DNA from: a virus
Lineage: Duplodnaviria > Caudoviricetes
Strand: one strand, 5' to 3'
Length of the DNA: 26,364 bases
Virus record (IMG/VR): IMGVR_UViG_3300012665_001423
Span: 1-26,364 of that record
The notes under the pieces were generated by a model. That model was not told where the DNA came from. It made no database searches and was given only the letters and a program-made list of their open reading frames with translations. Below are positions 1,395 to 26,171 of the stretch, piece by piece. The translations under genes were made by a program, and so were the position numbers. Positions within the stretch are counted from its first letter, which is position 1; each line of letters begins with the position of its first letter.

Positions 1395-1873
1395 GGAAAA
1401 GCCTAACGATCCTTTTAGCGGCGCTGGCAGGCAAAGACCAGAAGCCGCCAGGCTGGTTCGACCTGCACGACCTGCGCAGGATGTTCGGGCTGCTTACCTT
1501 GAACGCTACAAGCAACCTTTCTAAGCGCTTGTTCGATCGCGGTTATATGGAGCGCCAGGTTATCCATACCCTGCACGATAACGGCAAACACGGGCTGGCC
1601 TACATCTACCGCCCGCATCGGCGCTTTACCGATCCGCTTAAGGCGCGGGCCGCGATGCAGGCCGAAGGCATCGACCGAATCCCAGCGGGCTGGGTATCGA
1701 TGCGCGATTATGCGAACGCGCGCGGTATCACGATCCAGGCCGTTCACTTTATGATTCAGCGCCACAAGCTAAAGCCGCGCCTGTTCCGCATCGCCGCGAA
1801 CATCGGCTGCACGAAGCCCGCGCAGCATTACCGCAAGGCCGACCTGGATCGGCTGCACAAGTTCGCCCGATGA
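1391..1873 (+). CDS. Putative DNA-binding protein with two HTH-like segments
   Basis: ATGA overlaps at both ends; WFDLHDLRRMFG...LSKRLFDRGYMER and GWVSMRDYANARGITIQAVHFMI resemble wHTH/Xis-like HTH. Confidence 0.55.
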   Translation: MRKSLTILLAALAGKDQKPPGWFDLHDLRRMFGLLTLNATSNLSKRLFDRGYMERQVIHTLHDNGKHGLAYIYRPHRRFTDPLKARAAMQAEGIDRIPAGWVSMRDYANARGITIQAVHFMIQRHKLKPRLFRIAANIGCTKPAQHYRKADLDRLHKFAR

Positions 1874-3717
1874 TTACCGACCAGCAGGCCGCGATCCTGG
1901 CTGCAGCCCAGGCGGTCGTTAGGCCGAACTATTCGGGCGATCCCGTAGAATGGGCCGAAGCCAATATCCTGGAAGTTCCCGATTCGCCCGTTCGCGGTCG
2001 GCTGTCCCTGGCGCGAACGCCCTGGCTGGCTGAAGCGCTTCGTATCCTTTGCGATCCTGAGACTAAAACCGCCGTCATCCTGGCGGCTACGCAGTCAGGC
2101 AAATCCCTGCTGCAGCGCGTCTATATGGCCTGGCAGATCGTCAACGCTCCAGGCCCGATGATGACCTGCCAGGCTAACGACCCCGAATCGCGCGATTGGC
2201 TGCTGCGCTATGTCCGTCCCTTGTTCCGCGCAACGCCTGCGGTTCAGGCTTTGATCTCAGATTCCGACAACGACAAATCGACAACGATTGATTTTAAGAA
2301 CGGCGTTACGCTTTACTGTCGCGGCATCTGGAATGAGAACAACTTGCAGCGCCTTTCGCTGCGAACTGTTATTGTCGATGAAGCCTGGCTTGCGCCGCGC
2401 GGTCATTTGGCAGAAGCGGCTGCGCGCCTGCAGGCTTTCAGTTGGCTAGGCCGCGCGATCTATATGGGCCAGGGCGGCAGAACGGGCGATGAGTTCAGCG
2501 CGCTTTACGAAACATCAGATCAGCGCGAATGGCATATGTCCTGCCCGTCCTGCGGATTTCTCCAGCCCTGGCGATGGGAGTTTGTCAGATATCCAGAAGA
2601 TGCGAAGGTTAACGGAATCTGGGATTTGAATAAGGTAGAAGCTGGGACAACTTACGAATGCTGCAGCTGCCGCGTTCGGCTTAAGGACAGCCCAGGCGTT
2701 CGGGCCGAAGCGAACGATCCGAAGCGCGGCGCTGGTTTCAAGGCAACGCGCCAGGGCGCGACCTGGGGAACTGTCGGGCTGCATTGGAACTGCCTGATTA
2801 ATTCTTCGTTCGGGAAGGAAGGCGCGAAGATGCTAAAGGCGAAGGAAGCCTTCGATTCCTACGGCGATGAAGAAGGGCGCAGGGTCTGGAAGCAGAAGCG
2901 CCTGGCGCTTCCCTGGGCAGAGGAAGGCGGGCAGATCAGCGCTCTGGTAGAAGCGGGCGATTATAGCCTTAACGATACCTGGCAGAACGAAGCCTGGATC
3001 ACGCCGACCGCGAAGATTACGGATAGCAGTATCGGCATACCTGAACATTCCGTTCCGTTCCGAACCCTGGCTATCGATTGTCAGCGCGGTTTCTTCTGGG
3101 CTGAAGTTCGCAGCTGGGCCAGGAACGGCAGCAGCCGCCTGCGCTGGTTCGGTCGCGTTGAAACCTGGAACGGCCTGGACGATCTGGCAAAGGCGCACCA
3201 GGTTTCGCGCGCCCTGGTCGGCGCGGATAGCGGGGACAATACCCAGGAAGTTTACGCGCAAACGGCGAAACGCGGCTGGAAGGCTTTACGCGGTTCGGGA
3301 CAGAATGATTTCGCGGTTGCCGATGGGCAGGGTAAAACTACCCGCCGCTTCTATTCCGATAAGCAAAGGATTATTGTCCCAGGCTTGAGGGAGCGCGCGG
3401 AGCTTATCGTTTATGGAAATCTGCCTGCAAAGGATTTCCTGGCTGGGCTGCGCAACCGCCGCCTGCATACATACGCGCGCGATGTTTCCGATGAGTATGT
3501 AAAACAGTTAACCAGCGAGGTCAGGGTAACTGACAGCCGCAGCGGTAAACCTATCTGGATTCTTCCCGAATCAAATCGGCAGATCGGGAATCACGCCTTC
3601 GACTGCGCGCTTATGGGCCTGGTTCTGGCAGTCCGCTGGGGCATCATCGGGCGCGAAGCTACCGAAACGCCTGACGCGATCGCGGGCCAGGCCGCCGTTG
3701 ACAATGGCAGCGCTTGA
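1870..3717 (+). CDS. terL: Terminase large subunit, lambda GpA family
   Basis: PVEWAE N-terminus, RTPW adenine-binding motif, Walker A AATQSGKS, Walker B TVIVDE, two CxxC pairs, nuclease motifs IDCQ, DSG and NHAFDC. Confidence 0.95.
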   Translation: MITDQQAAILAAAQAVVRPNYSGDPVEWAEANILEVPDSPVRGRLSLARTPWLAEALRILCDPETKTAVILAATQSGKSLLQRVYMAWQIVNAPGPMMTCQANDPESRDWLLRYVRPLFRATPAVQALISDSDNDKSTTIDFKNGVTLYCRGIWNENNLQRLSLRTVIVDEAWLAPRGHLAEAAARLQAFSWLGRAIYMGQGGRTGDEFSALYETSDQREWHMSCPSCGFLQPWRWEFVRYPEDAKVNGIWDLNKVEAGTTYECCSCRVRLKDSPGVRAEANDPKRGAGFKATRQGATWGTVGLHWNCLINSSFGKEGAKMLKAKEAFDSYGDEEGRRVWKQKRLALPWAEEGGQISALVEAGDYSLNDTWQNEAWITPTAKITDSSIGIPEHSVPFRTLAIDCQRGFFWAEVRSWARNGSSRLRWFGRVETWNGLDDLAKAHQVSRALVGADSGDNTQEVYAQTAKRGWKALRGSGQNDFAVADGQGKTTRRFYSDKQRIIVPGLRERAELIVYGNLPAKDFLAGLRNRRLHTYARDVSDEYVKQLTSEVRVTDSRSGKPIWILPESNRQIGNHAFDCALMGLVLAVRWGIIGREATETPDAIAGQAAVDNGSA

Positions 3718-3734
3718 CGCACAACGCATAGTTA
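3711..3734 (+). promoter_or_regulatory. Late-module motif copy 1 (cgcTTGAC-N7-GCAT-N3-TA), candidate late promoter for the hairpin RNA
   Basis: CGCTTGACGCACAACGCATAGTTA; matches six other copies. Confidence 0.55.
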
Positions 3735-3800
3735 ACGGCTGCTGGTTTAGTTTCTGGGCGCTGGTCGATCGCCTGGGTTGTGGGCTGGGCCAGCAGCCGC
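3734..3800 (+). ncRNA. Candidate structured small RNA (long G-U-rich hairpin)
   Basis: 3736-3760 pairs with 3770-3799: 25 pairs, 8 of them G-U, with a 5-nt bulge and a 9-nt loop; fills the terL-gpW gap directly behind a late motif. Confidence 0.5.
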
Positions 3801-3805
3801 CCAAT

Positions 3806-3829
3806 TATTTGACCTGGCCCGCAACATTA
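3806..3829 (+). promoter_or_regulatory. Late-module motif copy 2; final A is the A of the gpW-like ATG
   Basis: TATTTGACCTGGCCCGCAACATTA(TG). Confidence 0.6.
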
Positions 3830-4089
3830 TGGCAATCAGCGGCGTTTTCATCGGGCTTACTGAAGCGGAACTTTTGGCGATCAAGGCGAAGGCTTTGGCT
3901 GAAGTTACCAGCGGCGTTGTTATGACTAACTACTCTGATAGCGGCAGTTCGGTCGGGAAGCAGGTAACTATGCCTGCGCGCGAACGCCTTGCCGAAGCGA
4001 TGTATGCGCTGCAGCTTCTCAATCCTGCCACCTACGGACAGCCGCAAACGCGCGTTATCCGAACGGATTGGAGCAATTACCAGGACTAA
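3829..4089 (+). CDS. Head-tail adaptor, lambda gpW-like
   Basis: 86 aa helix-hairpin-helix pattern between terL and portal, as in lambda gene order; start at ATG 3829. Confidence 0.6.
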   Translation: MAISGVFIGLTEAELLAIKAKALAEVTSGVVMTNYSDSGSSVGKQVTMPARERLAEAMYALQLLNPATYGQPQTRVIRTDWSNYQD

Positions 4090-4094
4090 ACTTT

Positions 4095-5582
4095 ATGCCT
4101 AAGAAATCCGTAGCGAAGAACCTGAAGCCTGGCGCTGACCAGAAGCCGCTTAAGCCGCAGGCTGCTGGCAGCCAAACCTGGGGATCGGTTGGCTTCAGTT
4201 CAAACCGCGCCACGATCTACGGGCAGGCCGCTGATTTCTCCGTTGATTACCAGCCCAGCGATCGGCTGGAAATGATTAAGCGGATTCGCTACGGCGAAAG
4301 GAACTTCGGCCTGGTGCGCCAGGTGTTCAACGATTACACGCTTTACTGTATCGGCGATGGAATCACGCCGCAAAGCGGCGCAGCCGAAGCCGATGTAGGC
4401 GCGGCCTATGAAGCCTGGTTCAAAGCCTGGGCTGCCGAAGCCTCGATCTGCGGGCGCTTCAGTTTCTACGATATCCAGCGCATCGCCTTGCGGGCAGCGC
4501 TGCGCGATGGGGACTGCTTCGTTGTCCTGGCAATCGATGAAGGCCGCCCGCGTTTGCAGGTTATCGAAGCGCATCGGGTAGGCAATCCGATCGGCAAGCC
4601 TGTTCCTGGGGGAATGTCTGACGGCGTTAAGTTCGATAGCAAGGGCCGCCTGGTCGGTTACAATGTAATTCAGGGCGATAACTCTAGCCGCTTCTTCGAT
4701 GCCGCTTCTGTTTGCCATATCGCCGAAATGGATTGGGCCAGCGGTTCGCGCGGGCTTCCGATCCTGCAGCATTCCTGGAACGATATCCAAACCGAAGATG
4801 AGCTGTTGCGCCTGGAAATGCTGGCGGTTCGAAACGATGCCGATGTTACGCGCGTCCTGCACCGCAACGGCGGTTTCATTCCCCAGGATATGAAGTCCGA
4901 ACTAGAAGGCAGCGGCAGCGCGAACCTTGAATCTGTCGCGTCCAGGATGGGCGGCAAACTGCTGGCCCTTGAGCCTGGCGAATCCCTAACTTCGCTGGCA
5001 TCAAATCGCCCTTCGCCCGTGTTCGCTGGATTCCTGAAATCTGTCCAGGCCGACATTCTTCGCGGAACTTTGCCTTATGAGTTTGTCGGCGATCCTTCTG
5101 CCATTTCTGGCTCAGGGGTGAGGCTGATCACCGCTAAGGCCGACCGCGTATTTTCGCGCTGGCAATCGGTAACGATCGATAAGCTTTGCCAAAAAGTCTG
5201 GGGCTTCGCGATGGGCTGGGCCGTTTCCCAGGGAGAAGTTCCCGAAGGGGATTGGTCGAATGTTTCCTGGACTACCCCGAAGCGCCTGACTGTTGACGCG
5301 GGCCGCGAAGCCGCGAACGATCGCGCCGATGTCGAACTAGGCCTTCTGTCTATGTCGGAACTTTACGCGCAGCGCGGCCTGGATATGCGCAGCGAAATGG
5401 TTAAGCGCGCTAAGGATTTTAAGTTTATCTTCGAGCTTGCGAAGGCCGAAGGCATTCCGACCTGGACGCTTTACAAGCCTGGCTTTAATTGGCTGCAGGA
5501 AGGCGAAGGCAAGCCGACCGCCGCCGAAGTTGCGATGCAAGGCATCGACCCTGCGCAGCCTACCGACCAGCCCGCCGCCTAA
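4095..5582 (+). CDS. Portal protein, lambda family
   Basis: 495 aa; RDGDCF, LQVIEAHR, DGVKFDSKGR, SRGLP and LEPGE motifs typical of lambda portals; synteny. Confidence 0.92.
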   Translation: MPKKSVAKNLKPGADQKPLKPQAAGSQTWGSVGFSSNRATIYGQAADFSVDYQPSDRLEMIKRIRYGERNFGLVRQVFNDYTLYCIGDGITPQSGAAEADVGAAYEAWFKAWAAEASICGRFSFYDIQRIALRAALRDGDCFVVLAIDEGRPRLQVIEAHRVGNPIGKPVPGGMSDGVKFDSKGRLVGYNVIQGDNSSRFFDAASVCHIAEMDWASGSRGLPILQHSWNDIQTEDELLRLEMLAVRNDADVTRVLHRNGGFIPQDMKSELEGSGSANLESVASRMGGKLLALEPGESLTSLASNRPSPVFAGFLKSVQADILRGTLPYEFVGDPSAISGSGVRLITAKADRVFSRWQSVTIDKLCQKVWGFAMGWAVSQGEVPEGDWSNVSWTTPKRLTVDAGREAANDRADVELGLLSMSELYAQRGLDMRSEMVKRAKDFKFIFELAKAEGIPTWTLYKPGFNWLQEGEGKPTAAEVAMQGIDPAQPTDQPAA

Positions 5583-5587
5583 ACTTT

Positions 5588-6427
5588 ATGCGTTCCCTTA
5601 TCAAAGCGATCACTTCAGGCCGCCCGTTCCTGGTAGATTATTCTATCGCGGAAAGCCATATCGAGGCCGTCAAGAAACACGGCCTGACCGATATCCTGGC
5701 GCAGTTCTTCGGCCCTTCGCCGAAGCCTTACCAGGTCGGCGCTACCTATGTCATTCCGATTGTCGGTATGATCGGGCGCAGCCTTTCCCCTATCGAGCGC
5801 CTAGGCGCTACCGATGTTGACCAGGTTAACGATTGGATTGACGAAGCAGTAGCAGCCAATCCTGCGCGCATTGTTTTCGATATCAATTCTGACGGAGGCA
5901 CGACCGAAGGGGTCGAAGAACTTGCCGACAAGATTCGCGAACTTAATATCGAAACGATCGCCTATTCTTCTGGTTCGATGAACAGCGCCGCCTATTGGAT
6001 CGGTTCGGCTGCAAACCGCCTGGTCGTTTCGCCCAGCAGCTCGATCGGTTCGATCGGTGTTTACCTCGCCTATATGGATCAAAGCGCCGCAGCTGCCGCC
6101 GCTGGCATCAAGCCCGTTGTGATTAGCAGCGGCCCGCTTAAAGGTATGGGAATCCCTGGCCTGTCTTTGACCGATGACCAGGCCGCCTACCTGCAGGAAG
6201 AAGTCAACGCGATCGCCGCAGATTTTAAGGCTGCCGTTCGTAAGAAACGCGCCCTGGTCAAAGATGAGGATATGCAGGGCCAATCGATGCAGGGTAAGGT
6301 CGCGATCGCGAAAGGCCTGGCAACGGGCAGCGCGCCGACCCTTAAGGCGCTGCTGGCTTCCCTGGAGAACCAGAAGCCTGGCGCTAATTCTGTCCCTACT
6401 GCCGAACGCGGCAAGTTGCGCGTTTGA
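5588..6427 (+). CDS. Prohead protease, S49 (SppA/ClpP-like) family
   Basis: DINSDGG, MNSAAYWIGS (catalytic Ser), GSIGV and SGPLK motifs; follows the portal. Confidence 0.92.
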   Translation: MRSLIKAITSGRPFLVDYSIAESHIEAVKKHGLTDILAQFFGPSPKPYQVGATYVIPIVGMIGRSLSPIERLGATDVDQVNDWIDEAVAANPARIVFDINSDGGTTEGVEELADKIRELNIETIAYSSGSMNSAAYWIGSAANRLVVSPSSSIGSIGVYLAYMDQSAAAAAAGIKPVVISSGPLKGMGIPGLSLTDDQAAYLQEEVNAIAADFKAAVRKKRALVKDEDMQGQSMQGKVAIAKGLATGSAPTLKALLASLENQKPGANSVPTAERGKLRV

Positions 6428-6930: not shown

Positions 6931-7812
6931 ATGTCGAACACTATTGCGGCTTCGCCCAATGTCCTCGCTGAGCAGGTGCTGGCTGGCCTTCGTGGCCGCC
7001 TGGCTATCCTCTCTGCCGTTTCTACCAACCTCACCCCGACTGCCACGGGCAAGACGATGCAAATCAGCCTTGTCTCTGGCGGCGCTGCTAAGGAGTTTTC
7101 CAAGGCTGACGGCGGTTATCACCAGGCTGACGATGCTAATCTTTCGGCTGCTACTGTTACCCTTAAGCACCTGCATTCGACTAAGGCTTTTTCGCCTGAC
7201 GAAATCAGCGAATACGGCGAAGCCTATATGGTCAACGCCTTCGTTCCTGAAGCGATCAACGCCCTGGTTAAGAAGGTTCACGCTGAAATGGGCGCGCTCA
7301 TCCTGAACGCTAACTATTCCGCTAACGAAGTTATCACCGCTGCTAACTTCAACTACGCCCAGGTCGTTGATCTTAACACCGATCTTAACGATGCCAAGGC
7401 TGGCGATCCGCGTTCCCTCATCCTCTCTGGTGCTTACGCTGGCGCTATCCGCAAGGATGCCACCCTTACCAGCGGTTCGTTCAACGGCGCTGGCGCTGCT
7501 GGCCCGCTTGTTTCTACGGGCGTCATCGGTCAGGTTGTCGGCTTCAACATCTATGAGTTCACCGATCTTCCGACCAACTCGGAAAACCTCGGCGGCTTCG
7601 CGATGGGCGCTGACGCGATCGTGGCTGGCTTCTCCCTCCCGAATGCTTCGATGTTCCCTGGTGAAGTTTCCCAGGCCGTTGACGCTTCTGGCCTCTCTGT
7701 CCAGGTTCTCAAGTCTCAGGGAACTGACGGCATCGTGCGCCTGACGGCGAGCGTTCGCGCTGGCTTCGGAGTCGGACGCGCGACTAGCCTTAAGCGCATC
7801 AAGACCGCCTAA
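6931..7812 (+). CDS. Major capsid protein (HK97 fold expected)
   Basis: 293 aa, strongly biased codon usage, position after protease/scaffold, followed by a strong terminator; G-x-I-G-x-V-x-G-F-x-I-Y-E segment typical of capsid proteins. Confidence 0.85.
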   Translation: MSNTIAASPNVLAEQVLAGLRGRLAILSAVSTNLTPTATGKTMQISLVSGGAAKEFSKADGGYHQADDANLSAATVTLKHLHSTKAFSPDEISEYGEAYMVNAFVPEAINALVKKVHAEMGALILNANYSANEVITAANFNYAQVVDLNTDLNDAKAGDPRSLILSGAYAGAIRKDATLTSGSFNGAGAAGPLVSTGVIGQVVGFNIYEFTDLPTNSENLGGFAMGADAIVAGFSLPNASMFPGEVSQAVDASGLSVQVLKSQGTDGIVRLTASVRAGFGVGRATSLKRIKTA

Positions 7813-7833
7813 GCGGTTCGGTTGCGAACTTAC

Positions 7834-7863
7834 AAAGGCCCGCCAAATCGGCGGGCCTTTTTT
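7834..7863 (+). terminator. Rho-independent terminator after the capsid gene
   Basis: AAAGGCCCGCC-aaatc-GGCGGGCCTTTTTT. Confidence 0.9.
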
Positions 7864-7889
7864 GTGCCTGGAGCTGATCGGCGAAAATA

Positions 7890-7925
7890 AAATAGTTTGA
7901 CAAAGGCGCAGGCCTGTAGTAGTAT
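7890..7925 (+). promoter_or_regulatory. Sigma70-type promoter of the moron
   Basis: TTGACA (7897-7902), 17-bp spacer, TAGTAT (7920-7925), A-rich upstream element. Confidence 0.8.
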
Positions 7926-8004
7926 ATCAGAAGTTAAGGCAACTTAACTCTGATCTTTGAAACCCCTTCCCGCCCACAAGGCGGGGACACAAAACAAAAC
8001 CAAA

Positions 8005-8211
8005 ATGCAAACCCGCAAATACGAAAACCGAACGAACGAAGAACTGCAGATCGAATACGCGAACTGCCTGGCAACCCGAATGGGAGCGCTGGGACACGGC
8101 AAGGCCCATTATAACGGCCTGCGCGTTGAAGCGATCCGCGAAGAAATGACCCTGCGCGGCATCAAGCCCGATGGACGCAAGGGAACTTTCAACGGCGAAG
8201 GCAGTTACTAA
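8005..8211 (+). CDS. Moron-encoded hypothetical protein (68 aa)
   Basis: ATG 8005 after an A/C-rich leader; has its own promoter and terminator. Confidence 0.7.
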   Translation: MQTRKYENRTNEELQIEYANCLATRMGALGHGKAHYNGLRVEAIREEMTLRGIKPDGRKGTFNGEGSY

Positions 8212-8217
8212 CCTATC

Positions 8218-8247
8218 AGGCCCGCCCTAACCAGGCGGGCCTTTTTT
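8218..8247 (+). terminator. Rho-independent terminator after the moron
   Basis: AGGCCCGCC-ctaacca-GGCGGGCCTTTTTT. Confidence 0.9.
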
Positions 8248-8252
8248 GTGCC

Positions 8253-8340
8253 TGCCTTCCTAGGCGGCTTGGCAGGCTGGGGTAAGGGGAAGGTAGGCTG
8301 CCCACCCTGAACGGGCCGCCACGGGCAAACCAGGCGGCAA
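8253..8340 (-). repeat. Degenerate ~90-bp element A (inverted copy of 19457-19543)
   Basis: On the - strand TTGCCGCCTGG-N40-CCCCTTACCC-N11-GCCGCC-N4-AAGGCA; same blocks and spacing at 19457-19543. Confidence 0.65.
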
Positions 8341-8369
8341 GGCTGGGCCAGCCAGCGGTCGGCCCTGGT

Positions 8370-8393
8370 CGTTTGTCCCTGGCTGCAACTGTA
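8370..8393 (+). promoter_or_regulatory. Late-module motif copy 4; final A is the A of the ATG at 8393
   Basis: CGTTTGTCCCTGGCTGCAACTGTA(TG); first motif after the moron terminator. Confidence 0.6.
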
Positions 8394-10548: not shown

Positions 10549-11145
10549 ATGGCTGACCGAAGATTTCTGAACGCGCACTTGATCGCGGCCCGAACAAATG
10601 TTCTGGGCCGCATTCTTTTACCCTTCTGCATCAAGCATAGGATTTGGCTGCAGGCTATCGATTCCCCGTTTCTGGAAAACGATAAGGAGATAGCGCCAGC
10701 CGATCTGATTGTAGGCCTGAAGGTATGCGCCGAAGAACCTTTCGGGAAGCCGACCTGGGCCGATCGCTGGCTTATGCTGCGTCTTACCCTCGATCGCAAA
10801 CTGTTCGCCGAAGGCTGCCGCGCCTTTGTCGCGCATATCGATACGCAGAAAGATTGGCCTAAGTTCTACGAAAAGAAGGACAGCCAGCGCGGCGGGGAAG
10901 GAACTGTTCCCTGGCAGTTGTCGGTCGTTGCGTCCCTATGCAAGAACGGCATCAGTTATTCAGAAGCGATGCAGATGCCCGAAGCGAAGGCGATCTGGCT
11001 GGCTGCGGTTTTCTCAATCCAGGGCGGCGCTAAGTTGGACATTCTTTCAACCGATGACGAAGAACTGATCGCCAGCCTGGACAAGCCTGGCGCGGTTGAC
11101 GGCGCGGCAACTGTAGGGGAAAGCCCGAATCAAAATGAGCAATAG
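10549..11145 (+). CDS. Putative tail assembly chaperone
   Basis: Located between tube and tape measure; C-terminal GISYSEAMQMP resembles the pre-TMP chaperone motif. Confidence 0.5.
   Translation: MADRRFLNAHLIAARTNVLGRILLPFCIKHRIWLQAIDSPFLENDKEIAPADLIVGLKVCAEEPFGKPTWADRWLMLRLTLDRKLFAEGCRAFVAHIDTQKDWPKFYEKKDSQRGGEGTVPWQLSVVASLCKNGISYSEAMQMPEAKAIWLAAVFSIQGGAKLDILSTDDEELIASLDKPGAVDGAATVGESPNQNEQ
11093..11115 (+). promoter_or_regulatory. Late-module motif copy 6, upstream of the tape measure gene
   Basis: CGGTTGACGGCGCGGCAACTGTA (6-nt spacer). Confidence 0.55.
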
Positions 11146-19627: not shown

Positions 19628-19674
19628 AAATAGTTTGATTTTCCCGTTGACGGCAGGCCTGGCTGATCTACCTT
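19628..19674 (+). promoter_or_regulatory. Early sigma70-type promoter 1
   Basis: AAATAGTTTGA upstream block; TTGACG (19647-19652), 16-bp spacer, TACCTT (19669-19674); downstream sequence repeated at the 20324 promoter. Confidence 0.65.
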
Positions 19675-19711
19675 CCTGATATTCCTAACCCGCAAACCCT
19701 AACCCGAAAAT

Positions 19712-20323: not shown

Positions 20324-20359
20324 AAATAGTTTGACCAGCGCCCAGGGCCGCCCTACCTT
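20324..20359 (+). promoter_or_regulatory. Early sigma70-type promoter 2
   Basis: AAATAGT-TTGACC (20331-20336), 17-bp spacer, TACCTT (20354-20359). Confidence 0.7.
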
Positions 20360-20391
20360 CCCGATATTCCAACCCGCAAACCCGAACCGAT

Positions 20392-20617: not shown

Positions 20618-20644
20618 CCTTTCCCACAACCCAACCCAATAAAC
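20618..20644 (+). repeat. Early leader repeat copy 1
   Basis: CCTTTCCCACAACCCAACCCAATAAAC; 26/27 identical to 22563-22589. Confidence 0.8.
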
Positions 20645-20653
20645 CGAACGCAT

Positions 20654-20911
20654 ATGATTACCGCTGAAGAACTCGAAATCGCTAACGCTGATCGCCTGAT
20701 CTGCAAAGCCAACCTGGCAACCTGGCGCAAGAATCTTAAGAAGGCTGTCGCGATCTTCCCTTGCCTGGAAGAACACGCGCAGCCCGAATGCCTGGCCCTG
20801 ATCGGCGAAGCTTACCTTCGCGTTAAGGCCGAAGGCGCTAACCTCAAGGCCGCCCAGGAAGTTTACCGCCAGGCTTTGTTCCTGAGCCGCAACGCTAACG
20901 CTAAGAACTAA
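20654..20911 (+). CDS. Hypothetical helical protein
   Basis: 85 aa; phage-like codon usage. Confidence 0.65.
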   Translation: MITAEELEIANADRLICKANLATWRKNLKKAVAIFPCLEEHAQPECLALIGEAYLRVKAEGANLKAAQEVYRQALFLSRNANAKN

Positions 20912-20916
20912 CCCCT

Positions 20917-21036
20917 ATGCTTCGCGCTATCCTTATCGCCCTGGCCCTTGCCGCGCTGATCATCTTCGCCGCTTCGGTTTTCTTCGGCAACGACTACCCT
21001 GATCTTCTGGAACTCATCGATAACCCTAAGTTCTAA
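20917..21036 (+). CDS. Small membrane protein (39 aa; not in ORF track)
   Basis: MLRAILIALALAALIIFAASVFFGNDYPDLLELIDNPKF fills the gap exactly. Confidence 0.7.
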   Translation: MLRAILIALALAALIIFAASVFFGNDYPDLLELIDNPKF

Positions 21037-21041
21037 CCGCT

Positions 21042-21338
21042 ATGGAAACCCAGCCCGTCCGCGACCGCTGCCTATACCTGCTGCATATGCTGGCCTGCCA
21101 GGTCGGTTTCATCAACGACCGCGTTATCTGCGGCGATATCAACCTGACCGCAGCCCGCCGCCAGGCGCAAACCCTGGCTGACGAAGCTGCCCAGGATATG
21201 CAGGACACGGGCGCGGGCGAAGCCTGGATCACCGCGCACCAGGCCGCAGGCGGGCTGGTCGGTTTGTCCTGGCAGGTTCTGCTGGTCAACGATCCGCAGC
21301 CGCTACACGGCAACATTACCCCTAAGGGCCGCGCCTGA
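21042..21338 (+). CDS. Hypothetical protein
   Basis: 98 aa, TGATG overlap with the next gene. Confidence 0.6.
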   Translation: METQPVRDRCLYLLHMLACQVGFINDRVICGDINLTAARRQAQTLADEAAQDMQDTGAGEAWITAHQAAGGLVGLSWQVLLVNDPQPLHGNITPKGRA

Positions 21339-22562: not shown

Positions 22563-22589
22563 CCTTTCCCACAACCCAACCGAATAAAC
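22563..22589 (+). repeat. Early leader repeat copy 2 (before ERF)
   Basis: CCTTTCCCACAACCCAACCGAATAAAC. Confidence 0.8.
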
Positions 22590-22591
22590 AT

Positions 22592-23314
22592 ATGAGCCGA
22601 CCGAAGAAGAACGAAGAAACGACCGCTGAAGCCGCTAAGGATGCAACTATTCTGGCTGCCGAAATCAGATCAAGCGATATGAGCGCTACCGAAGCGCTTG
22701 TTGAAGGCATCGCGGCCTGCGGTAATGTCCAGGCTACGCGCATCAACCCGCATTTCCGAAGCAAGTATTTCGGCCTGGGCGATCTGCTGGCCCAGGTTAA
22801 GCCGACCCTGGCATCTTATGGCCTGGTTATCCTGCAGACTCCATACACCAGCGAAGAACGCATCAGCGTTAAAACCGAAATCCTTCACGGCAAAAGCGGG
22901 CATCGCTTCGATTTCGGCGAACTTGGCATCAAGGCCGCTGGCCTTAATCTCCAGGCTACGGGCAGCGCGCTTTCCTATCTGAAGCGCTACGCGATCGCGA
23001 CTATCGTGGGCGTTGCATCGGATGACGAAACCGAAGATGACGGCAACGCGGCAAGCCGACCGATCCAGCATAGCGCGCCGAAGGCCCAGGCCGCCGCGCA
23101 GCCGAAGCCTGCCGCCTGGTTTATCGCCGCTGGCATCACGACCCCGCAGGCCCAGGAAGTTGCCGCCGAACTGCTGCGCCGCAAAGGCTGGCTGGGCGCT
23201 GGCGATGGGCTGCAGGAACTTGACGAAGCGAAGATCGCGGCGCTGCAGCAGGGCCGAATGATGCAAACCTTTGTTGACGCGGTTCGCGCTCAGCTCGAAA
23301 ACCCGAAGGCCTGA
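22592..23314 (+). CDS. erf: ERF-family single-strand annealing protein
   Basis: NPHFRSKY..L, GSALSYLKRYAIATIVGVASDDETEDDGN signature. Confidence 0.9.
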   Translation: MSRPKKNEETTAEAAKDATILAAEIRSSDMSATEALVEGIAACGNVQATRINPHFRSKYFGLGDLLAQVKPTLASYGLVILQTPYTSEERISVKTEILHGKSGHRFDFGELGIKAAGLNLQATGSALSYLKRYAIATIVGVASDDETEDDGNAASRPIQHSAPKAQAAAQPKPAAWFIAAGITTPQAQEVAAELLRRKGWLGAGDGLQELDEAKIAALQQGRMMQTFVDAVRAQLENPKA

Positions 23315-23817: not shown

Positions 23818-24005
23818 GCAAGGCAACCGAAGCCCGCGCCCGACCTGGCCTTAAACTTCTAACGCCTTACGAACTGAGCAAAGCAGCCCAGGGCCGCGAA
23901 GCCGATCGCGCCCGCTGGCAGTTCCTTTTCTCCCTGAATAAATACAAACCGCAACCTACCCGATGCCAACCGAACCGAAGAAGCCGCGCCGCCCGCGCGA
24001 AATGA
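23814..24005 (+). CDS. Hypothetical protein (TTG start)
   Basis: TTGA overlap with the upstream stop, fills the gap, but overlaps the next gene by 43 nt. Confidence 0.4.
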   Translation: MSKATEARARPGLKLLTPYELSKAAQGREADRARWQFLFSLNKYKPQPTRCQPNRRSRAARAK

Positions 24006-24364
24006 TTACCCTGCCCAGCGGGCATAAGGTAAGCCGCAGCCTGCATAGCAAACTGATCGCAGTCCGCGCCGACCTGGAACGCCTGAACGATCGCGAACGC
24101 CTGAACCTGCCCGACATCGCCGCGCGCCTGGGAGTTACCCGCGAAACCGCCGCGACCTGGGCCGACCTGCTGGGCATCGCGATTCATAACAGTTATAAGC
24201 GCCCGCGCGTTGATAAGACAGCCTGGGCAAAGGTTCTCCCTGTCCTGCGTAAATCTGGAATGACCTACAAACAGATTGCCGCGAAGATCGGCGCGACCCC
24301 TATCAGCGTTTGCCGCTGGTTTCTGAACCAGGGAATCATTACGAACGATCATTATCGCAACTGA
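23963..24364 (+). CDS. Double HTH DNA-binding protein
   Basis: LNLPDIAARLGVTRETAATW and GMTYKQIAAKIGATPISVCRW. Confidence 0.8.
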   Translation: MPTEPKKPRRPREMITLPSGHKVSRSLHSKLIAVRADLERLNDRERLNLPDIAARLGVTRETAATWADLLGIAIHNSYKRPRVDKTAWAKVLPVLRKSGMTYKQIAAKIGATPISVCRWFLNQGIITNDHYRN

Positions 24365-25249: not shown

Positions 25250-25266
25250 CCTTTCCCATAACCCAA
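25250..25266 (+). repeat. Early leader repeat copy 3 (before exonuclease)
   Basis: CCTTTCCCATAACCCAA, 16/17 identical to copies 1 and 2. Confidence 0.7.
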
Positions 25267-25280
25267 AACAAAACAACCCG

Positions 25281-26171
25281 ATGCCCCTAACTAAAGAACA
25301 GATCGCCGCCCTGCCGACCGCAACCTGGACGCGCGAACAATACGATGCCCATAAGGACGCGCTTAACCAAAGCGGCTGCAAGGCCATCTTGCATTCCCCG
25401 CAGCACTACCAGGCCGAACTGACTAACCCGCGCAAGGATACCGCCGCCCTGCGTATCGGCAGGCTTACCCATATGGCGGCCCTGCAGCCCGATGATTTCG
25501 CCGCCCTGGTTATCTGCGAACCCGAAGATGCGCCGAAGCGCCCGACCGAAAAGCAGGCTACCGCGAAGAAGCCGAAGCCCGAACATATCGAAGCGCTGCA
25601 GTTCTGGCAGGCCTTCGACAGCCAGGCCGCTGGCAAGATCGTTGCCGACCGCGATGAATACCTGGAATCGCTGGCCTATGCTAACGCGCTCAAGGCCGAA
25701 CTTGCCCATTGGCAGGTTAAGCCGCTGGCAACCGAACTTTGCCTGATCGCTGATTACGGCGCTACCCCGCTGAAATCTCAGATCGATCTGATCGGCGCTG
25801 ACGGATTCATCTACGACCTGAAAACCTTTACGGGTTACGCAACGCCGCAGAACATCCTTCGCGAAATCTATGCAAGGGGTTATCACTTGCAGGGGGCGTT
25901 CTATCAGTTGATTTATAAACTTGTTTTCGGCGAACGGCCCGCAGGTTTTCGCCTGGTATTCGTAGAGAAGTCCGCGCCTTACGCGACCGCTACCTTTGAA
26001 CTGTCGCGCGAACTGATCGCCGAAGGCGGCGTTCTTCTGCAGCAGGCGATCGAAGCCTACAACGCGGCCCGCGAACTGAATCATTGGCCCGCCTACCCGA
26101 AGCAGATCATTACCCTGCAGCCGCGCGCCCTGGGCGGCAGCCAGGCCGATAACGGCATTACCTTCGCCTAA
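25281..26171 (+). CDS. PD-(D/E)xK exonuclease, RecE/ExoVIII-like (DUF3799-type)
   Basis: LNQSGCK...SPQHY, ALRIGRLTH, KSQID, IYDLKT, YHLQGAFY and FVEKSAPY motifs. Confidence 0.88.
   Translation: MPLTKEQIAALPTATWTREQYDAHKDALNQSGCKAILHSPQHYQAELTNPRKDTAALRIGRLTHMAALQPDDFAALVICEPEDAPKRPTEKQATAKKPKPEHIEALQFWQAFDSQAAGKIVADRDEYLESLAYANALKAELAHWQVKPLATELCLIADYGATPLKSQIDLIGADGFIYDLKTFTGYATPQNILREIYARGYHLQGAFYQLIYKLVFGERPAGFRLVFVEKSAPYATATFELSRELIAEGGVLLQQAIEAYNAARELNHWPAYPKQIITLQPRALGGSQADNGITFA

Follow-up and report, generated by a model that had tools for sequence, protein, structure and literature searches.

The 26,364-base pair (bp) IMG/VR record IMGVR_UViG_3300012665_001423, the whole record of a tailed phage (Caudoviricetes) with an estimated completeness of 90%, was analysed at its full length and is referred to here as the window. 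Behind its terL gene (1870..3717, + strand; large terminase subunit of the gpA family; Pfam GpA_ATPase 1.1e-31, GpA_nuclease 1.1e-10) lies a hairpin RNA of 64 nucleotides (nt; 3736..3799, + strand) with a 17-bp lower stem, a 5-nt bulge on the 3' side, an 8-bp G-U-rich upper stem and an apical loop. The shape of this + strand hairpin recurs across clades with compensatory changes, its bulge and loop are constrained, and complements to them lie at most ~45 nt from the start codons of the helicase and ERF recombinase genes, where the match within a genome is better than the match to other clades. Judging from comparative sequence, we give about as much credence as doubt to the reading that the hairpin behind terL is a trans-acting antisense RNA of the phage's early replication and recombination genes.

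A strand-specific hairpin conserved behind terL

The hairpin starts 19 nt past the terL stop codon, and positions 3736-3760 pair with 3770-3777 and 3783-3799 over 25 pairs, the basal 10 of which are Watson-Crick and 8 of which are G-U. The + strand RNA of 3730-3805 has a minimum free energy (MFE) of -39.0 kcal/mol (z -3.20), with 1 of 200 shuffled sequences folding equally well, and the core at 3736-3799 reaches -37.9 kcal/mol (z -4.38), with none of 200 shuffles as good. On the - strand the same region folds to only -25.2 kcal/mol (z -1.81; 11 of 200 shuffles as good), because the G-U pairs make up 8 of the 25. An earlier reading of the letters without database searches (the sequence-only reading) had described a 25-bp hairpin with 10 basal Watson-Crick pairs and 8 G-U pairs that form only on the + strand RNA, and both the pair table and the folding of the two strands agree with it; the bulge that it placed at 3777-3781 is the same bulge, shifted by one base, as the 5-nt bulge UUGUG at 3778-3782 of the MFE structure, where the unpaired probability is 0.93-1.0 at 3778-3781 and 0.67 at 3782. 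When the record was scanned in ~2,600 sliding segments of 80 nt, the two segments that contain the hairpin ranked 4th and 5th in + strand stability and 2nd and 5th in strand asymmetry.

We gathered TerL relatives of 44-96% identity in three sets, comprising 32 viral-contig loci, the best 80 of 175 metagenome relatives and the best 80 of 308 that were detected when viral contigs were scanned a second time, the last of which gave 69 loci with both the terL end and the next gene, or 53 distinct gaps. A long hairpin of the same design is present in 50 of these 53 gaps (65 of the 69 loci), and the other three (L155, L162, L184/L185) measure 6-45 nt and lack it. The metagenome set agrees: the hairpin is absent in L066 and L069, L101 has a different neighbour gene, and the fold is less clear in L108, L111 and L130. 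What stays constant is the design, with a lower stem of 10-17 bp, a G-rich 3' bulge of 4-5 nt, an upper stem of 8-10 bp and an apical loop, while the base stems are unrelated in sequence from clade to clade. The + strand was the more stable by 6.7-15.4 kcal/mol in all 18 distinct gaps that were folded both ways, and 11 hairpins from several clades gave z values of -3.2 to -7.2. The position is constant as well: in nearly all relatives the hairpin comes directly after the terL stop (7 nt past it in G002) and 5-15 nt before a late-type motif, which in the window reads TTGACC-N6-GCAA (3809..3824, + strand) and stands 10 nt downstream of the hairpin and 5 nt before the ATG of the next open reading frame (ORF). 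In many clades a C- and U-rich run follows the stem, such as CCUUUUUCC in L026 and UCCUUUUGAC in L021.

A MAFFT alignment of the hairpins from all clades yielded an RNAalifold consensus of 0 pairs, because the stems cannot be aligned by sequence, and covariation was therefore assessed within clades. In the window clade 3 of the 25 pairs are changed on both sides and 2 are broken in L007; in a large sister clade (17 distinct sequences) 11 of 24 pairs show compensatory changes, and the 3' strand GGCGUGGG with its bulge UGGG and the loop core GGAAGA are nearly invariant. Structural covariation in the terL gap of relatives, which the sequence-only reading had proposed to look for, is thus present in both clades. 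The apical loop of the large sister clade, (A)GGAGGAAGA, is a Shine-Dalgarno-like purine run in phages that lack such gene starts. We conclude that the hairpin is a real, strand-specific and conserved RNA structure, and neither a DNA palindrome nor a coding region.

The hairpin belongs to no Rfam family that we could find: at gathering score the whole window returned no match to the C4 antisense RNA or to any other family, and at E<=5 over 3600-3950 the sole hit was to a miRNA model, at 16 bits against a gathering score of 92, with no C4 match. As a stable hairpin at a gene end, followed in some relatives by a U-containing run, it resembles an intrinsic terminator, but we rejected a canonical one, since the 25-bp bulged stem with 8 G-U pairs is directly followed by CCCAAUUAUUU, with no U tract within 2 nt. 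At the hairpin a terminator consensus scan picked out no more than a sub-hairpin of 5 pairs (3786-3803, tail ATTATTTGAC), and the poly-U directly after the stem that marks an Hfq-type small RNA (sRNA) is absent. The terL hairpin is also unlike the two canonical terminators of the window at 7835-7857 and 8218-8242 (GC stems of ~9-11 bp with T6 tails; each terminator is followed by TTTTTTGTGCC), being far longer, bulged and G-U-rich.

A copy of the late-type motif also precedes the hairpin: TTGACG-N6-GCAT (TTGACGCACAACGCAT, 3714..3729, + strand) overlaps the terL stop and has 1 mismatch to TTGAC-N7-GCAA. The sequence-only reading had a late motif start transcription at 3734, a putative start that relatives do not support, as no such motif is conserved before the hairpin outside the clade of the window; the copy is kept, with a varying spacer, in the window clade and in L007/L030 and is absent in G002 and the large sister clade. 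With no conserved motif copy ahead of it, the hairpin is most simply taken to form the 3' end of the terL transcript.

Complements of the bulge and loop in early-gene leaders

Two segments of the window hairpin are candidate seeds. Seed 1, UGGGUUGUGGG (3774..3784, + strand), is centred on the bulge 3778-3782 and complements a leader repeat, and in close relatives it also complements the loop of a stem-loop in the helicase leader. Seed 2, GGUCGAU in the apical loop (3763..3769, + strand), complements AUCGACC, which is located 3-9 nt before the helicase ATG in the relatives G001, G003 and G004. The DnaB-like helicase gene lies past the end of the window and is seen in relatives only, and the helicase argument for the window is made from these three genomes, at 85-93% TerL identity.

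The complement of seed 1, CCCACAACCCA, has two exact + strand copies, at 20623-20633 and 22568-22578, and an exact - strand copy at 3774-3784, and a variant with one G-U change, CCCATAACCCA, occurs at 25255-25265; allowing up to one mismatch, the 11-mer has 5 matches in the window against 0.18 expected. All three leader sites had been listed by the sequence-only reading as ending 14-21 nt before gene starts, and they do end 21, 14 and 16 nt upstream of the ATGs at 20654 (an 85-amino-acid ORF without family, 20654-20911), 22592 (ERF recombinase gene, 22592-23314; Pfam ERF 1.5e-14) and 25281 (PDDEXK (DUF3799) exonuclease-like gene, 25281-26171), respectively, all on the + strand. They fall within leader repeat copies 1 (20618..20644), 2 (22563..22589) and 3 (25250..25276), the third of which is weak, and since all three are copies of one 27-nt repeat (family D8) they count as a single event.

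Helicase leaders share a common plan, consisting of a TTGAC box, a small stem-loop with the bulge complement in its loop, and an AUG-proximal site that complements the apical loop of the hairpin; in relatives the helicase and ERF sites are 8-10 nt long and occupy positions -45 to +16. In the window clade (G001, G003, G004) the leader loop CCACAACC is matched by the bulge GGUUGUGG and the AUG-proximal AUCGACC by the apical GGUCGAU. The corresponding loop and bulge are CCCCACAA and UUGUGGGG in G008, for which no AUG-proximal site is listed, and CCCCAAG and CUUGGGG in G014, where the AUG-proximal AAGACCCA is matched by the apical UGGGUCUU. Within the large sister clade the leader loop CCCACGCC is matched by the bulge strand GGCGUGGG, and the AUG-side pair exists in two forms: three genomes (G011, L122, L112) have the loop GGAAGAAG with the leader CUUCUUCC directly before the AUG, and three others (G017, L092, L127) have the loop GGAAGAGA with the leader UCUCUUCC at the same place, such that loop and leader have switched jointly. 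The order of the two helicase sites fits an antiparallel duplex. In a clade examined afterwards (G021, TerL 51%), the apical UGGCAGGCUG complements helicase positions +7..+16 over 10 nt, a run attained by 30 of 2000 shuffles, and the bulge UCGGGG complements an upstream CCCCGA (6 nt). The same genome has at 10775-10787 a 13-nt complement to the apical region, CAUGGCUGGCAGG, that ends in ATG; this site lies ~130 nt past the end of the helicase tblastn match, may span the start codon of the next gene and may be a further candidate target.

We compared at least 20 whole or long relative records, with each hairpin set against the leaders of its own genome. In the other clades the best leader matches hit ERF and the DnaB/AAA_25 helicase (Pfam), and the matched hairpin bases are those of the bulge or the apical loop. 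Cognate and non-cognate hairpin-leader pairs, a comparison that controls for composition, were tested by exhaustive permutation with one genome per clade. For ERF (7 clades) the longest run was 7.71 in cognate against 5.88 in non-cognate pairs (P=0.0006; P=0.004 without the window and P=0.0006 with alternative representatives), and for the helicase 7.71 against 6.14 (P=0.0036; P=0.0012 with alternative representatives), and the exonuclease showed no such preference (P=0.23 and 0.39). A two-site score for the helicase over 8 clades was 13.25 for cognate against 10.02 for non-cognate pairs, with P=7e-5 for both representative sets, and each site was significant alone, the apical loop against the AUG-proximal site giving P=0.0026 and 0.0008. 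The same two-site score was not significant for the control genes portal (P=0.40, 0.83) and major capsid (P=0.36, 0.13), and eight control classes (terL, the ORF in the gpW position, portal, capsid and tail-region ORFs) gave single-run P values of 0.035-0.87. With the 5' half of the hairpin and with reversed leaders the run length was not significant for ERF or the exonuclease, and the 5' half against helicase leaders gave P=0.04.

As a separate measure we ranked every ORF start (-45 to +20) of each genome as a target. In 10 of 13 genomes the helicase came among the five best of 20-46 ORFs (Fisher, 9 clades, P=0.0006), and the rank test for ERF gave P=0.009. By these comparisons the DnaB-like helicase is the best conserved predicted target. 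The complementarity between seed and early-gene leaders that the sequence-only reading had claimed thus co-varies between clades (ERF P=0.0006, helicase two-site P=7e-5), which answers its own caveat that low-complexity sequences inflate chance matches.

Two further resemblances to the hairpin occur in the window. At 20333-20345, GACCAGCGCCCAG complements 13 nt of the hairpin (3754-3766; 5' upper stem and loop) and coincides in part with the -35 box of a promoter-like site at 20331, by chance or through a link at the DNA level. At 1281-1298, TGGGTTGCGGGCTGGGTT resembles the seed-bearing 3' hairpin arm at 15 of 18 positions; as this segment is inside ORF 495-1394 and folds with a z of -0.8, we rejected it as a second seed and take the likeness as coincidence.

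Antisense pairing weighed against its alternatives

In the antisense mechanism that we favour, the G-rich 3' bulge and the apical loop would pair with the leader or start regions of early genes, the predicted targets being ERF and ORF 20654 in the window and the DnaB-like helicase in complete relatives. The hairpin would accumulate as RNA, probably as the 3' end of the terL transcript, given that no promoter before it is conserved. Its bulge might, for example, first kiss the loop of the small stem-loop in the helicase leader, after which the apical loop would pair beside the AUG. Such pairing would lower translation of the targets once the terminase region is expressed and may thereby serve the switch from replication and recombination to packaging. 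In the sequence-only reading the RNA would be expressed late and shut off its targets, and leaderless late mRNAs would escape, all of which stays hypothetical. That hairpin-less G006 also lacks the stem-loop in its helicase leader fits the antisense idea. G006 has long + strand hairpins at ~21015-21130, which we do not count as related to the terL-gap hairpin.

Several observations weigh against the antisense reading. Among them are two hairpin-less relatives and two clades that show no match. The co-variation has exceptions, in that G010 has no helicase match even though its sister G013 retains a 9-mer, and the AT-rich G016/G012 show no match; hairpin-less G019 retains the C-rich helicase-leader motifs, and a complementary element is absent in its 18.7 kb (63% of a genome). 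Some controls were borderline (terL upstream 0.07 and 0.025, ORF 8722 0.057, portal single-run 0.035). The tests were devised after the first matches had been seen and the genomes share ancestry, so that all P values are approximate. As to the targets named by the sequence-only reading, ERF stands in both the permutation and the rank test, but the exonuclease is not a consistent target family-wide (rank test P=0.77). Its exposed seed stands in part, the bulge being unpaired, but only 5 of the 11 bases of seed 1 (3778-3782) are unpaired, and the apical loop had to be added as a second seed. Within the window alone the 11-mer match is marginal, because a run of at least 11 had P=0.04 against 200 shuffles of the 100-nt hairpin region over 36 leaders and because complements to a 13-mer, a 12-mer and four more 11-mers of this region are likewise found elsewhere on the + strand of the window. 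In cofolding gain the ERF leader ranked 4th of 33, with ORF 20654 and the exonuclease placed lower than 10th, and the window sites, 14-31 nt upstream of the ATG, are at the margin of the usual ribosome footprint. Four public RNA runs searched over 1870-6000 contained short contigs of relatives, none covering 3250-3790; these are contig-level data from small shares of the runs in which RNA ends are not visible, and no conclusion was drawn from them.

The best-surviving alternative, which we regard as unlikely though far from negligible, is that the hairpin is purely a cis element of the terminase mRNA and that its complementarity to leaders is incidental. It would then mark the 3' end of the terS-terL message, where it could block 3' exonucleases, undergo RNase III-type processing or act as a weak or factor-dependent terminator. 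The element would insulate the terS-terL transcript from the late unit that restarts at TTGAC-N6-GCAA 10 nt downstream. Its constant place between the terL stop and the late-type motif in nearly all relatives speaks for such a role, as do the C/U-rich runs behind the stem in many clades, the great stability of a hairpin whose seed is mostly paired, and the dimensions of 17 + 8 bp with an asymmetric 5-nt bulge, a known size for RNase III substrates, which have about two turns (at least 20 bp) of double-stranded RNA and often an internal loop that limits cleavage; cleavage of the hairpin itself is hypothetical. Left unexplained by a cis element are the invariance of bulge and loop while their pairing partners drift and the better match to the helicase and ERF leaders of the own genome than to those of other clades; moreover, the same phage has canonical T6-tailed terminators elsewhere, and the three distinct gaps that lack the hairpin still have the late-type motif. 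A cis role and an antisense role may coexist.

Chance and composition provide a second alternative, in which G/U-rich arms meet C/A-rich leaders devoid of Shine-Dalgarno sequences and one ancestral coincidence has been inherited. All leaders of the window are indeed C/A-rich (CCCTAACCC, CCTTTCCCA..AACCCAA), shuffled hairpins reach runs averaging 8.4 nt, with a maximum of 14 nt, single genomes outside the window clade have matches of 8-10 nt with individual P values of 0.11-0.66, and several control classes are borderline, as given above. Against this, the composition-controlled cognate tests are significant at clade level, orthologous genes provide the best matches in independent clades, and there are two-sided substitutions within clades, which leaves chance quite improbable in our estimate.

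Complementary RNA motifs are also one double-stranded DNA site viewed from opposite strands, and the matches could on this account reflect an asymmetric 8-11-bp site placed in opposite orientation in the terL gap and in the early leaders, read by a co-evolving phage DNA-binding protein such as the helix-turn-helix protein encoded at 23963-24364 (+ strand). In several clades the helicase-leader motif is indeed within an inverted repeat right after the TTGAC box, a typical operator position, and the first half of the late-type motif, TTGACC or TTCCAAT depending on clade, points to a phage-specific DNA-binding factor. A DNA site would not account for the matched bases being those of the bulge and loop, predicted to be unpaired, in a hairpin maintained by G-U pairs available to the + strand only, nor for two separate sites that hold the antiparallel order of an RNA duplex; in the large sister clade and G021 the second site abuts or is inside the helicase coding start, and the orientation of leader sites is never mixed among the sites seen. 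We consider a DNA-level signal improbable, at around one chance in ten. The decoy role offered as an alternative by the sequence-only reading, in which the hairpin would mimic leaders and titrate a leader-binding protein, is scarcely credible, since what the conserved seed carries is the leader motif's complement and not a copy of it, such that a factor binding single-stranded RNA would see a different sequence, even if in the window clade 12 nt at the hairpin's 3' foot (CAGCCGCCCAAU) recur without change within part of the helicase leaders of G001 and G004 (11 of 12 in G003).

Gene context, related RNAs and significance

The long ORFs of the window are all on the + strand. Around the hairpin they encode the small terminase (47-619, PHROG 57), a lambda-family portal (4068-5582), an S49 protease (5489-6427) and the major head protein (6931-7812). 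The 86-amino-acid ORF directly downstream of the hairpin (3829..4089) keeps its start MA.SG.FIGL in relatives and matched nothing in Pfam or PHROGs; its gpW label is based on position alone, that of lambda gpW. Inspection of all gene starts in the window found no Shine-Dalgarno sequence at any of them, and a leader pattern CCTTTCCC..AACCCAA is common to early genes family-wide, including those of hairpin-less G006. Positions 3000-4500 had no blastn match in a phage GenBank collection. Two metagenome-assembled genomes with TerL relatives carry the labels Verrucomicrobiota and Phycisphaerales, which points only weakly to a host. No tRNA gene is present in the window; a tRNA-Thr(UGU) gene stands upstream of ERF in G002, G006, G008, G010, G015 and G018, mostly directly so, with a distance of ~460 nt and an additional tRNA-Ser in G002.

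Further copies of the late-type motif, TTGAC[CG]-N5/6-GCA[AT], are at 8373, 10144, 11096 and 14966; several structural genes have the motif 5-24 nt ahead of their ATG, and it recurs before late genes of G002, G008 and G011. A second G-U-rich hairpin (8318-8383, GGGCAAACCAGG...CCTGGTCGTTTGTCC) overlaps the copy at 8373, before ORF 8393. We rejected a canonical sigma-70 promoter for the TTGAC motif, as in the relatives the next ATG follows only 20-29 nt after TTGAC and another clade has TTCCAAT as the first half, which implies a phage-specific factor in place of a host -35 box; probably this factor is phage-encoded. Bacteroidetes-type and sigma-54-type readings of the motif were dropped because they fit poorly. 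The two near-identical terminators described above flank a unit with a strong, sigma-70-like promoter at 7897 (TTGACA-17-TAGTAT) and an 84-amino-acid ORF (7957-8211, TTG start) without family match, and this unit (7830-8250) has the look of an insertion behind the major head gene, either a moron or a gene for a small RNA. Early promoter-like sites at 19647-19690 and 20331-20375 have TTGAC-N16/17-TACCTTCC-N-GATATTCC in common, and the site at 20331 shares AAATAGTTTGAC with the promoter at 7897.

The closest precedents are the c4 antisense RNA of P1/P7 and the CI RNA of P4, structured phage RNAs of ~60-80 nt that are encoded away from their target and pair through two short exposed segments with two leader sites near the ribosome-binding region of a phage mRNA, with matched changes in seed and target among related phages. 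The proposed RNA would share with them its small structured form, two seeds, two leader sites and their joint change, but it gives no Rfam C4 match and is a single long, G-U-rich hairpin whose seeds are a bulge and a loop, and it is encoded behind terL and not in an immunity operon, with a helicase and ERF as predicted targets in place of an antirepressor. In CopA/CopT of R1 and RNA I of ColE1, a bulged stem-loop limits replication by kissing, through its loop, a stem-loop of a replication-gene leader, a contact like that predicted here; these plasmid copy-number RNAs are transcribed from the strand opposite their target, to which they are complementary throughout, whereas the hairpin is encoded ~5 kb away on the same strand and has seeds of only 6-11 nt. 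The intergenic RNase III hairpins of T7 and lambda sib (~60 nt, >20 bp, with an asymmetric internal loop or bulge, in polycistronic mRNAs) are alike in intercistronic position, size and asymmetric bulge, although cleavage of the terL-gap hairpin is hypothetical, and we know of none that carries seeds co-varying with other mRNAs. To our knowledge very few trans-acting phage RNAs have been described, almost all of them from a handful of E. coli model phages.

In lambda, the sRNAs PreS (LPR1) and LPR2 and the 6S RNA come from terminator or operon-internal positions, and the study that describes them raises the pairing of late-operon RNAs with early-operon transcripts as a possibility (bioRxiv 10.1101/2024.10.31.621285). 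PreS is described there as acting mainly on host genes (dnaN), being Hfq-bound and ending in a GC stem with poly-U (bioRxiv 10.1101/2024.10.31.621285). Set against PreS, the terL-gap hairpin has no U tail and no known chaperone, and its predicted targets are the phage's own genes.

Tentatively, then, we propose that a family of ~26-32-kb uncultured phages may carry a single-hairpin 'anti-leader' RNA at the 3' end of terL that would silence the phage's own helicase and ERF genes, through a kiss between bulge and leader loop and an apical site beside the AUG, when the packaging genes come on, as an RNA-based early-to-late switch acting on genes without Shine-Dalgarno sequences. Comparative sequence by itself defines an RNA family absent from Rfam, for which the fold is conserved, both seeds are constrained and targets are predicted. 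Should the pairing prove unreal, what is left is a conserved and well-supported RNA structure between the terminase and head genes that calls for an explanation. The predicted targets, a replicative helicase and a recombinase, suit a switch from replication and recombination to packaging. If the proposal is true, a small RNA, rather than proteins, can carry temporal control in tailed phages, the family would show in what way translation starts are controlled on C/A-rich leaders free of Shine-Dalgarno sequences, and its natural compensatory variants would make the co-evolution of seed and target readily testable.

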